In this document: positions 57,259-59,955 of the stretch, piece after piece
How the letters are laid out: the number at the start of each line of letters is the position of its first letter
Numbering within the stretch: the first letter of the stretch is position 1
Assembly: GCA_049287305.1 (NCBI GenBank)
Contig: JBAQFO010000014.1
Location: 128,453 to 192,452, forward strand
Reading direction: 5' to 3'
DNA: 64,000 bases
Origin: Minisyncoccia bacterium
Lineage (GTDB): Bacteria; Patescibacteriota; Minisyncoccia; Phycocordibacterales; UBA9973
Notes under the pieces: generated by a model
The model's input: the letters and a program-made list of their open reading frames with translations, nothing else
Databases searched by the model: none
Told to the model about the DNA's origin: nothing
Position numbers and translations under genes: made by a program

Positions 57259-57300
57259 CAGACAAAAAACAAAAAACCGCATTCCTGCGGCTTTTTGTTT
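57259..57300. terminator. Bidirectional terminator
   Basis: AAAAAACCGC-attcct-GCGGCTTTTTGTTT. Confidence 0.65.
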
Positions 57301-57318
57301 CAAAAACTAATTTAAATA

Positions 57319-57633
57319 TTAGTATTCTCTTCGTCCTCCACCACCGTATCCACCGTTTCCTCCACTAGATCGTGGGGGTCGAGCTTCCATAGGGCGAGCT
57401 TCATTGACTGTAAGTTTGCGTCCTTCGAAATCTTGGTCGTTGAACATAGAGATAGCTTTCGCTGCTTCATCCTGAGATGACATTTCTACGAATCCAAAAC
57501 CCTTTGAACGACCAGACATTTTGTCCATGATAATCACAGCAGAAACAACGTTTCCAGCTTGTGCGAAGAGGTCCCTAAGGGCGTCTTCTTGAGTGCTGTA
57601 AGGGAGTCCCCCTACATATAGCTTTGTAGCCAT
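57319..57633 (-). CDS. RRM-type RNA-binding protein with Gly-rich tail
   Basis: RNP1 KGFGFVEM and RNP2 LYVGGL. The tail is SSGGNGGYGGGGRREY. Confidence 0.85.
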   Translation of the reverse strand: MATKLYVGGLPYSTQEDALRDLFAQAGNVVSAVIIMDKMSGRSKGFGFVEMSSQDEAAKAISMFNDQDFEGRKLTVNEARPMEARPPRSSGGNGGYGGGGRREY

Positions 57634-57790
57634 ACTTTTATACTTCTCCCGTTTTTGAAAAATCGGGCAAAAACTATTTAATAAACCTGCTACAAAGAGT
57701 AATCTTTCTAGCCGGCGTAGAAACTCTTTTTCGCTAAATGAGGCCTACAAAAAAATAATACCATATAAAAAATAAAATGCAATCGGCAGA

Positions 57791-57847
57791 AAACTTTTTC
57801 GTCCTTTTGGACTCATCAGGCAAGACACACATCTTGCGAAAGCCCGG
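57791..57847 (-). ncRNA. Candidate type-III hammerhead ribozyme
   Basis: Minus-strand RNA GGGCUUU C^ GCAAGA-UGUGUG-UCUUGC CUGAUGA GUCC-AAAA-GGAC GAAA AAGUUUU. It has NUH = UUC at the cleavage site, stem I of 6 bp, core CUGAUGA, stem II GUCC/GGAC (G10.1:C11.1), core GAAA, and an open stem III AAAGUUU/GGGCUUU. Confidence 0.45.
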
Positions 57848-57958
57848 ACAGAATGATGCTGTCCGACCTGGAGGAACTCCAGGATTTTGATGTTGGCCGG
57901 CTGACGCGCGGCCTGACGATTCCTGTTTTAGTGGCGAAGGAACATTTCGCGTGGAGGG

Positions 57959-58453
57959 TCAGTGGCGGCGAGGAGGAAGCGTGATAATGCTGAATTCGAA
58001 ACTGTGGACTGGATTCGAATCCTCCTGTGGATGCCGACAGAGACAGTTCGGACAGATCGGGTCCGTCGTCGCGAGCTTCCAGTTGGCGCGAAGGACGAGT
58101 CCTTCGGTACCAAAGAGGTCGAACTCTGCTTGGACCGCCGACCAGAAGAAGCTGGTGGCCGCCTGAAGCTGGCCGGCGATCTTGTTCGTCCGGCTCGCGA
58201 GTTCGTGCATTTCCTCCGGCATCATCTGGTTGAGGTCGTCGAAGGTGAGTCGCTGAACCTTGGCGACTTCAGCGTTGCGCTGCTCTGTCAGCCGGCAGAT
58301 GAGCGCCCAAAGCTTCTGGAGCTCTTCCGAAAGAATGCCGGCCTCCTCCTCGCCCGCGTACGTGCGGATCAGTTTGAGGCGGTCTCCAGCGATGGCAACC
58401 TCATCTGGCGTGACGGTGGCGAGATGTTCCAGGAGTCTTTCGATCAGTTTCAA
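57959..58453 (-). CDS. Hypothetical soluble protein, GC-rich gene, probable TTG start
   Basis: AGGAGA SD 6 nt before the TTG. 164 aa with a CPNCLC motif near the C-terminus. The antisense 173-aa ORF is Arg-rich and was rejected. Confidence 0.45.
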   Translation of the reverse strand: MKLIERLLEHLATVTPDEVAIAGDRLKLIRTYAGEEEAGILSEELQKLWALICRLTEQRNAEVAKVQRLTFDDLNQMMPEEMHELASRTNKIAGQLQAATSFFWSAVQAEFDLFGTEGLVLRANWKLATTDPICPNCLCRHPQEDSNPVHSFEFSIITLPPRRH

Positions 58454-58565
58454 GGTGATTCTCCTATTCTGCTATTAAACTAACCTTATTGAATTAGCCA
58501 CAGCTTCAAAAAAATAAAAAATTATTACTCTCTTGAAACTATGGCTAAAATGTAAAGAACGCTAC

Positions 58566-58626
58566 ATACTCTGGCATTATAGCACACTTTATACCAGTTT
58601 GTCAAGTAAAAAACCCTTACTAATCA
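58566..58626 (-). promoter_or_regulatory. Repeat module copy A: terminator hairpin (of the DUF805 gene) plus TTGACA-N18-TATAAT promoter facing 57959..58453
   Basis: Minus strand reads AACCTTGATTAGTAAGGGTTTTTT then TTGACAaactggtataaagtgtgcTATAAT. About 85% identical to copy B at 59897..59955. Confidence 0.55.
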
Positions 58627-59106: not shown

Positions 59107-59272
59107 GTTTATAATATTTGTTATGAATAATTAATACACACGAATTATACAATATTCAATAAAAATTAGTAAAGGCCATTCAACGTTTGAAGAATGGCCT
59201 CTGATTGTCTGCTCACGCGAGACCTACGGTCCTTATTTTTTTGCGCGGGGGAAACTTCCCGCTTCGTCATCG

Positions 59273-59875
59273 TCAGAGAATTTCTTTCAGTCGGACAAGC
59301 CGGCTCAGGAAAACACTGACGGCGTTGAGACTCACCCATCCGAGCCAGACATGGACCAGCTCCATCTCCGGCCGGTGTCGCCAGAACATCGGCAACACCG
59401 CTTCCCACGTCAGAAACAAGACGTATGGGAAGACGACGAAGAGGATGATCAGATTACCCAACTGCCTGAGTGGCGGAATACTGGTCAGAAGCCAGAATCC
59501 AACGCAGGCCAGAAGAGCAACCTTGGCGCCGTCGGGAACGTGGTACCACGCGTAGTTGTTCCGTAGCCACGCTCCGACGCACAGCGCAGCGAAGACGATG
59601 AAGATCAATACGACGTGGTTGAATCGAACCCCTCCCGCAGCGCGAGCGACGAGCCGCTTGCCCGTTTCCGCCATCGTCGGGAAACTCCTGACGAGTAAGT
59701 AGACGAGGTATACGAGAAGAACTGCCTTCATGTGCAACCGTGGAAGATACGAGTAGCTGTTCCACAGAAGCATTATGAAGACGAGAACCAAGAACTTCAC
59801 GACCCATGTCATGAACTTCTCGAATGTCGTCAACCCCATGAACTTGAAAATGTACTTCGCGAACTCTCCAAACAT
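59273..59875 (-). CDS. Hypothetical polytopic membrane protein, GC-rich gene
   Basis: AGGAGG SD 8 nt before the ATG (MFGEFAKY...). Roughly five hydrophobic helices. The tracked ORF start at 59926 is the TTG of the promoter -35 box. Confidence 0.5.
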   Translation of the reverse strand: MFGEFAKYIFKFMGLTTFEKFMTWVVKFLVLVFIMLLWNSYSYLPRLHMKAVLLVYLVYLLVRSFPTMAETGKRLVARAAGGVRFNHVVLIFIVFAALCVGAWLRNNYAWYHVPDGAKVALLACVGFWLLTSIPPLRQLGNLIILFVVFPYVLFLTWEAVLPMFWRHRPEMELVHVWLGWVSLNAVSVFLSRLVRLKEIL

Positions 59876-59896
59876 CGGTGAATCCTCCTGCCGCAT

Positions 59897-59955
59897 ATTA
59901 TAGCACACTTTATCCCATTTTGTCAAATAAAAAACCCTTTATTCTTAAGGGTCTT
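59897..59955 (-). promoter_or_regulatory. Repeat module copy B: TTGACA-N18-TATAAT promoter abutting the SD of 59273..59875, plus an upstream hairpin and T-run (probable prfA terminator)
   Basis: Minus strand reads ACCCTTAAGAATAAAGGGTTTTTT then TTGACAaaatgggataaagtgtgcTATAATatgcggcAGGAGGattcaccgATG. Confidence 0.55.

Follow-up and report, generated by a model that had tools for sequence, protein, structure and literature searches.

Hammerhead ribozymes of the RF00008 family are found in viroids, satellite RNAs, plant retrozymes and some bacterial intergenic regions. Bacterial prophage regions contain clustered hammerheads that flank single genes; these cleave in vitro as well as in vivo, and the role proposed for them is to cut long transcripts down to mRNAs of gene length (Perreault et al., 2011; PMC3088659). 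A 2017 review places type I and type III hammerheads in bacterial intergenic regions beside small non-conserved ORFs, and treats the role of hammerheads in prokaryotes as an open question (PMC6155905). The association of bacterial type I and III hammerheads with small non-conserved ORFs and with phages has been known since 2010-2011, and a preliminary description of the locus discussed here erred in taking type III to be unusual in bacteria.

RiboJ is a synthetic insulator engineered from the type III hammerhead of sTRSV and a hairpin. It is placed in the 5' UTR, and its cleavage uncouples downstream expression from the upstream sequence. In mammals, Martick and colleagues reportedly found, in 2008, a discontinuous hammerhead in the 3' UTRs of Clec2 mRNAs, split by a long insertion. 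It is said to remove the poly(A) tail and to lower expression.

The element that we compare with these systems lies in a window of 64,000 nucleotides (64 kb), the whole stretch of DNA that was analyzed, and occupies positions 57791-57845 of its minus strand. From 57845 to 57791 this strand reads GGGCUUUC GCAAGAU GUGU GUCUUGC CUGAUGA GUCC AAAA GGAC GAA AAAGUUU. The 5' strand of stem III, GGGCUUU (57845-57839), ends in U16.1 at 57839 and is followed by C17 at 57838. Then come stem I, in which GCAAGAU (57837-57831) pairs with GUCUUGC (57826-57820) around a GUGU loop; the core CUGAUGA (C3-A9, 57819-57813); stem II, GUCC-AAAA-GGAC (57812-57801), with the pair G10.1:C11.1; GAA (G12-A14, 57800-57798); and the 3' strand of stem III, AAAGUUU (57797-57791), whose A57797 forms the A15.1-U16.1 pair with U57839. 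All invariant core nucleotides are present, and position 17 is C, not G. CUGAUGA, GAA, A15.1-U16.1 and C17 are shared with the RF00008 hammerheads, as is the three-helix junction with its open stem III; hairpin loops cap stems I and II, an arrangement that loop-loop contacts require. The helices stand in type III order and measure 7 bp (stem I), 4 bp (stem II) and 7 bp (stem III), the last being weak, with three A-U, one G-C and three G-U pairs. Cleavage is predicted 3' of C57838, between 57838 and 57837. The preliminary description had proposed a canonical type III hammerhead on this strand with the same scissile bond, and every element is found where it was placed, with the support of 128 relatives.

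A descriptor search of the window finds exactly one hammerhead motif. Among 300 dinucleotide-preserving shuffles of the window, none contains a motif whose helices reach 6, 4 and 6 bp, and a looser descriptor yields 0.017 motifs per window, in agreement with the earlier judgment that a chance match is very unlikely. Rfam RF00008 (Hammerhead_3) aligns end to end, over model positions 1-54, with 37.3 bits. The E-value is 1.1e-6 when the local region is searched and 1.9e-4 when the whole window is compared with all 4227 families; in the latter comparison the hammerhead is the sole significant non-tRNA match. An Rfam covariance search had been named beforehand as a check on the motif, and a lack of hits above threshold as its refutation. 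At the gathering score the outcome is formally a refutation: the motif scores 11 bits under the 48.5 bits of RF00008, and a default Rfam scan is silent. The significant E-value and the covariation of the family override this. Curators set the gathering score to suit seed sequences from viroids and plants; it does not define a hammerhead biochemically. R1, a covariance model of the family, gives the window copy 70.4 bits, the window sequence being among the 128 used to build the model; searched against the 64 kb, R1 finds a single hammerhead copy.

In a nearest-neighbor model, which ignores the tertiary structure of the hammerhead core, the hammerhead fold of the 56-nt unit is 2.2 kcal/mol less stable than the minimum-energy fold, and with more flanking sequence the gap grows to ~6 kcal/mol. 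Competition of this kind had been foreseen, from an upstream hairpin thought to share the G-run of stem III. Alternative folds are indeed 2-6 kcal/mol more stable, but the hairpin has only one G (57845) in common with stem III, and these folds do not refute the motif, because 30% of family members show an energy gap equal to or larger than that of the window copy. The more stable folds, the weak stem III and the score under the Rfam gathering score are what can be said for a chance match or a decayed, inactive relic. We consider this reading very improbable. Comparable motifs are absent from the shuffles, every invariant nucleotide is intact and the energy gap is typical of the family. Moreover, a near-identical hammerhead is present in a related genome (contig L133, 4288-4342), where the protein corresponding to the neighbor of the window ribozyme is 39% identical; between the two ribozymes there are 4 differences in 56 positions, and outer stem III accounts for 3 of these. 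The element at 57791-57845 is a genuine type III hammerhead, and it is very probably active in self-cleavage.

Relatives were searched for in species-representative genomes with the exact 23-nt string of core and stem II, CUGAUGAGUCCAAAAGGACGAAA, which occurs at at least 120 loci and in at least 130 copies. Going by record titles, and with the matches listed in unknown order, ~97 of the 120 loci listed belong to CPR/Patescibacteria; 12 are titled 'bacterium' without lineage and 11 carry other labels. Saccharibacteria, the most frequent lineage among the matches listed, hold most of the copies listed, and cultured, genetically tractable strains of this group now exist. Paceibacterota and Woese-, Kaiser-, Nomura-, Taylor- and Gracilibacteria are also represented among these matches. 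A type III fold with an 18-nt stem I hairpin is found in 124 of the 131 copies listed, and position 17 in these 124 is C (95), U (21) or A (8), never G. The CUGAUGAGUCCAAAAGGACGAAA-type family is also carried by 36 IMG/VR uncultivated viral contigs, often in 3-5 copies per contig, and arrays of 2-5 copies occur in some CPR loci and viral contigs; 50,697 GenBank phage records contain chance matches only. As far as these matches allow us to judge, the hammerhead family is large and concentrated in CPR/Patescibacteria chromosomes, and is also present in some uncultivated phage contigs. No copy in 18 related loci reaches the RF00008 gathering score. Since standard Rfam annotation misses them, such ribozymes are probably under-reported in CPR genome annotations. 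Beside the Saccharibacteria copies no Rfam family is adjacent, and only tRNAs are found elsewhere in those loci. A sub-family of Saccharibacteria loci (L164, L201, L225, L247 and L252) has a conserved structured domain of ~85 nt, ~90 nt upstream of the hammerhead, in which AUGGCAAGUGGAUAUGGG pairs with CCCUAUGUCUGCUUGUCAU around internal hairpins; this domain has no Rfam match at gathering score.

The 128 aligned sequences show the pairing expected of the fold. Paired cells amount to 89.5%, as against 64.4% in shuffles and 32-42% with slid partners, and the covariation score is 0.677, as against 0.18 and at most 0.12, respectively. In stem I pairing reaches 95.5%, and each of the 7 pairs shows all four Watson-Crick types and changes on both sides; in stem III covariation supports the inner 5 pairs. 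Stem II does not vary in the main set, because the search string contains it. It covaries in variants retrieved with a descriptor and a stem I-specific pattern (GUUC/GAAC, GCUC/GAGC, GUCG/CGAC, GUCA/UGAC and GUCU/AGAC). Among the copies listed, loop I is UGUGU-like (GUGU at its center in 57 of 124, with the first loop bases at least 90% conserved) and loop II is AAAA or NAAA, while the stems vary. Such conservation suggests a tertiary contact between loops I and II, natural hammerheads with loop-loop contacts having the same appearance, and for this reason the word 'minimal', applied to the motif at first, does not suit it. The UGUGU-like and NAAA loops are also the family's own, distinguishing it from other RF00008 hammerheads.

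The gene that precedes the ribozyme on the minus strand is an orphan, P0001 (57959-58453), which encodes 164 aa from a TTG start with an AGGAG Shine-Dalgarno sequence 8 nt upstream. The ribozyme is found 113 nt after its stop, matching the 3'-UTR position of ~110 nt in the preliminary description, and is followed by the T-rich tract noted there. P0001 has no Pfam domain, and a word-based protein search with it returned P0001 itself as the sole match, annotated as a hypothetical protein in a metagenome-assembled genome of Minisyncoccia (CPR/Patescibacteria). An exhaustive HMMER search of 1.84 billion representatives found 27 full-length homologues of 145-190 aa, with the common motifs LQKLW, FFWA, GW.V and C..CG.RH; because of these homologues and their conserved motifs, we regard the ORF as real. 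Its AlphaFold2 model (pLDDT 88, pTM 0.79) has no structural match in PDB or in BFVD (viral structures). The gene had been described as GC-rich and horizontally acquired. The former is correct (~60% GC at 57800-58450 versus ~42% for the genome); the latter is unproven, and P0001 is better seen as a resident, fast-evolving gene than as a recent arrival, since in the related genome this locus is occupied by a homologue whose promoter and leader are the same. An antisense ORF of 173 aa (57962-58483, plus strand) is divided into codons at the same points as the orphan gene. It is probably an artifact and not a gene, because GC-rich codon usage gives few TTA, CTA and TCA codons.

Transcription of P0001 has clear start signals. 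A sigma-70 promoter at 58576-58605 (minus strand) consists of TTGACA, an 18 nt spacer and the extended -10 element TG-n-TATAAT, and agrees with consensus at 12 of 12 positions. It follows the terminator of a DUF805 gene, an arrangement also seen in L133. The leader contains GUUCUUU at about +9 (58554-58560), which is conserved in the L133 leader, and a long 5'-UTR hairpin (58494-58548, inverted repeat I1 with 27-nt arms), whose stem ends UUAGCC/GGCUAA are kept in L133. From P0001 to the next gene (57959 to 57633) the minus strand has no terminator-like site; the first intrinsic terminator downstream of the promoter is at 57266-57301 (minus strand). The gene in between is co-directional and encodes an RRM-type RNA-binding protein (57319-57633; Pfam RRM_1, E 1.1e-21), with its start codon 157 nt from the ribozyme. 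A possible extended -10 element for this gene, TGG TATTAT, can be read at 57755-57763 of the minus strand, where the promoter scan did not report one. The order on the minus strand is L31, RF1, a 217-aa GC-rich membrane ORF, DUF805 with its terminator, P0001, ribozyme, RRM gene and terminator, and a convergent tRNA lies beyond. An ATP synthase operon and L25 are also among the neighbors, and a Pfam scan of the four ORFs nearest to the ribozyme finds no integrase or phage genes.

The probable role of the hammerhead is, in our view, to give the orphan mRNA its 3' end by self-cleavage and so to set P0001 apart from the housekeeping gene downstream. An mRNA started at the promoter (58605-58576) would carry P0001 and the ribozyme, and because there is no terminator before the RRM gene, RNA polymerase would be expected to read through both into that gene. 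The ribozyme would fold co-transcriptionally and cut after C57838. The upstream product would be a P0001 mRNA with two hairpins, P3 and P4, near its 3' end, followed by a tail of 8 nt that terminates in a 2',3'-cyclic phosphate. The other product, from downstream of the cut, would be a 5'-hydroxyl RNA headed by the folded ribozyme body, and may carry the RRM gene; if the putative promoter at 57755-57763 is real, this product would matter little. The ribozyme would thereby take the place of a terminator as the 3'-end-forming element, and a strongly expressed, fast-evolving accessory gene would be uncoupled from a housekeeping gene, with a presumed stabilizing or insulating effect.

The neighbors of the ribozyme show the same asymmetry across the family. 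When same-strand ORFs of at least 70 aa within 350 nt of the ribozyme are called mechanically, an ORF ends upstream in 108 of the 131 copies listed and one starts downstream in 83. Among the copies listed, the GC content of the upstream ORFs exceeds that of their own 8-kb loci by a median of 8.3 points, with an excess of more than 8 points in 55 of 108 and a deficit of more than 8 in none; for the downstream ORFs the difference (+0.8 points) is at background level. The difference is also found without ORF calls: in the copies listed, the 400 nt upstream have 54.1% GC and the 400 nt downstream 46.0%, and upstream exceeds downstream in 82 of 106 (p 6e-10). Viral copies do not show it. Upstream proteins are nearly devoid of Pfam domains (22 families over 108 proteins), and 86 of the 108 are singletons in an all-against-all BLASTP comparison; downstream proteins are housekeeping ones such as topoisomerase, ribosomal protein S2, MetRS, GroES and SHMT (copies listed in both cases). 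Terminator-like sites beside the ribozyme are not enriched among the copies listed (15/107 and 9/107, versus 9-10/107). Given this family-wide asymmetry, the window has the typical arrangement: GC-rich orphan gene, hammerhead, housekeeping gene and no terminator. The regularity of the context, a conserved ribozyme behind GC-rich, unrelated, domain-less genes and before housekeeping genes in many CPR lineages, in most cases with no terminator close by, leads to a testable hypothesis, namely that the ribozyme forms and insulates the 3' ends of accessory-gene mRNAs.

The ribozyme could instead mainly serve the gene that follows it: through cleavage the RRM mRNA would acquire a structured, well-defined 5'-OH end and be shielded from the sequence upstream, in the manner of RiboJ. 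Downstream same-strand genes at 83 of the 131 copies listed are consistent with such a service, as are the start codons that usually lie ~15-30 nt past the ribozyme in viral copies. Many CPR copies, too, are followed by a conserved leader (GUUCUUU and a long hairpin) and then a start codon. The window ribozyme, however, has no such leader behind it, the RRM start codon is far off with a possible promoter in between, and a same-strand ORF is more consistent upstream of the copies listed than downstream. Service to the RRM gene is therefore quite unlikely to be the main role, though it is compatible with 3'-end formation.

The leader module is itself recurrent. GUUCUUU(N)AAA is followed by a 15-20 bp hairpin of variable sequence and a start codon in the window (58554-58560 and 58494-58548, minus strand), in L133 (4889-4960 and 4344-4420) and in many of the loci L134-L298, and it stands ~9 nt past the consensus promoters of P0001 and of its counterpart in L133, P0002. 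GUUCUUU is found 5-9 nt after ~25% of CPR hammerheads (36 of 131 copies listed versus 5 of 131 controls), and the module is absent from viral copies. Pairing of GUUCUUU with AAAGGAC (loop II/stem II) as an anti-ribozyme device was considered and rejected: GUUCUUU is unchanged when stem II is GCUC/GAGC, GUCG/CGAC or GUCU/AGAC, and is missing in viral copies.

Between the P0001 stop and the ribozyme, the 3' UTR contains several structured parts on the minus strand. The proximal module (57895-57950) has two hairpins, GCGAA/UUCGC (57934-57950) and GGCCG/CGGCC (57895-57913). It aligns with L133:4171-4240, where it lies behind a different gene, and in the second hairpin pairing is kept there with swapped bases, as read from the sequence (GCCGG/CCGGC). 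A single-stranded linker follows, AACAUCAAAA (57885-57894), with CAUCAAA or AAUCAAA in six distinct relatives. Its CAUCAAA is complementary to UGAUG of the ribozyme core (57814-57818) and pairs with it in the minimum-energy fold; the linker may serve to attenuate the folding of the ribozyme from within, or the match may be coincidental. The two perfect hairpins announced in the preliminary description are both present: P3, CCUGGAG UUC CUCCAGG (57867-57883), and P4, CGGACAG CAUCAUU CUGUCCG (57845-57865), each of 7 bp. P4 would end the upstream cleavage product, and overlaps stem III at G57845 only.

The layout of CAUCAAA, P3 and P4 before stem III defines a sub-family made up of the window, L133, L221, L286, L291 and L295; in the five relatives, too, a hairpin occupies the P3 position. 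The stem sequence of P4 differs among the window, L133, L286 and L295, and the hairpin forms in all; L221 and L291 have one common stem, one compensated pair away from that of L286. By this comparison P4 is conserved in structure, not in sequence. The two-hairpin module is confined to the sub-family, and family-wide there is no significant enrichment of stable structure directly 5' of the ribozyme relative to coding controls (p 0.78, 0.31).

L133 shows how these modules are distributed. Its hammerhead stands behind a different gene (420 aa), and the ~110 nt from the stop of this gene to the ribozyme align with the 3' UTR of the window. P0002, the positional homologue of P0001 with the same promoter and leader, has after its stop the first 12 nt of the same 3' module, at which point the contig ends (5487-5498). 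Because hairpins and hammerhead recur after a different gene in L133, and start again behind P0002, the alignments indicate that they are a portable, multi-copy module. The other loci of the P0001 family contain no hammerhead and no other Rfam ribozyme, so the ribozyme is not tied to this protein family. In L122 (2217-2291), what stands behind the P0001-family gene P0020 is not a hammerhead but a poly-G/poly-C hairpin of ~75 nt. P0001-family contigs often stop 12-50 nt past the gene (the ends of L133, L123, L125 and L126), in keeping with an assembly interrupted by a multi-copy element or by sequence that varies among strains.

A portable module raises the question whether leader, GC-rich ORF, hairpins and hammerhead make up an exchangeable or mobile cassette, shared by CPR bacteria and their phages, whose 3' boundary is the ribozyme. 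The main role of the ribozyme would then be in the biology of the element and not in the housekeeping of host mRNA, for example in resolving arrays into unit-length RNAs that might circularize or be mobilized. Consistent with this are the hypervariable cargo next to a near-identical ribozyme (P0001 and P0002 are 39% identical, RF1 in the same two genomes 91%), the same 3' module behind two different genes in L133, the arrays in CPR loci and viral contigs, the contigs that end right behind P0001-family genes and the contrast of the GC-rich cargo with the host genome. The window itself, on the other hand, has a single hammerhead in housekeeping surroundings, integrase and phage genes are not found nearby (Pfam scan of the four nearest ORFs), the gene occupies the same locus with the same promoter in the related genome, and viral copies come without GC-rich cargo. 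The sole flanking direct repeat, of 14 nt (CTACAAAAAAATAA at 57745-57758 and CTTCAAAAAAATAA at 58504-58517; 13/14 identical, 759 bp apart), does bracket the GC-rich gene and the ribozyme, but it is A/T-rich and absent from L133, and as an island boundary was discarded as probably due to chance. On balance a cassette boundary is a rather unlikely explanation.

On a larger scale, CPR bacteria and their phages may have a gene-cassette system of their own that is delimited by ribozymes, the hammerhead marking one cassette end; we put this forward tentatively, and doubt it more than we credit it. Each cassette would have a conserved leader (GUUCUUU and a long hairpin) behind a promoter or a previous ribozyme, then an orphan ORF, GC-rich and hypervariable; one or two hairpins would follow, and after them a type III hammerhead. 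If such a system exists, cargo genes could be exchanged or strung into arrays by way of the conserved untranslated modules, and self-cleavage would free stable monocistronic RNAs, possibly able to circularize.

Formation of the P0001 mRNA 3' end, the reading that we favor, has its closest parallel in the clustered prophage hammerheads. Like them, the window ribozyme adjoins a small non-conserved ORF on the same strand, its relatives form such arrays, and the role proposed, the processing of long transcripts into gene-length mRNAs, is the same. It differs in being one copy with housekeeping neighbors and no integrase or phage genes found nearby, and in its CPR host and GC-rich cargo, which are not mentioned in the literature searched. 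That literature contained no paper tying hammerheads to CPR/Patescibacteria, and no report of systematic GC-rich orphan cargo upstream or of a recurrent leader module; the CPR expansion and the GC-rich cargo appear to be new. Unlike the paired hammerhead copies of circular RNA replicons and retroelements, the ribozyme is a single copy in a DNA chromosome. It is driven by a promoter and has no meaningful flanking repeats in the window, which separates the locus from viroid-like, retrozyme and Obelisk-type elements. RiboJ resembles it as a type III hammerhead placed between parts of transcription units; the window element, however, is natural, lies in a 3' UTR or intergenic region and has its hairpins upstream, whereas the RiboJ hairpin is downstream. 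With the Clec2 hammerhead it reportedly shares a position inside the 3' UTR of a protein-coding mRNA. The Clec2 ribozyme is eukaryotic and split, whereas cleavage in the window would leave protective hairpins on the coding fragment.

A second GC-rich island, at 59200-59800 (55-61% GC), lies between RF1 and DUF805 and is without a hammerhead. It contains the ORF at 59273-59926 (minus strand), whose 217-aa product is membrane-like and has no solid Pfam hit. The same interval in L133 holds other genes, of 71 aa and 420 aa (Band 7-like), and because its gene content differs in this way, the RF1-to-RRM interval looks like a variable hotspot.
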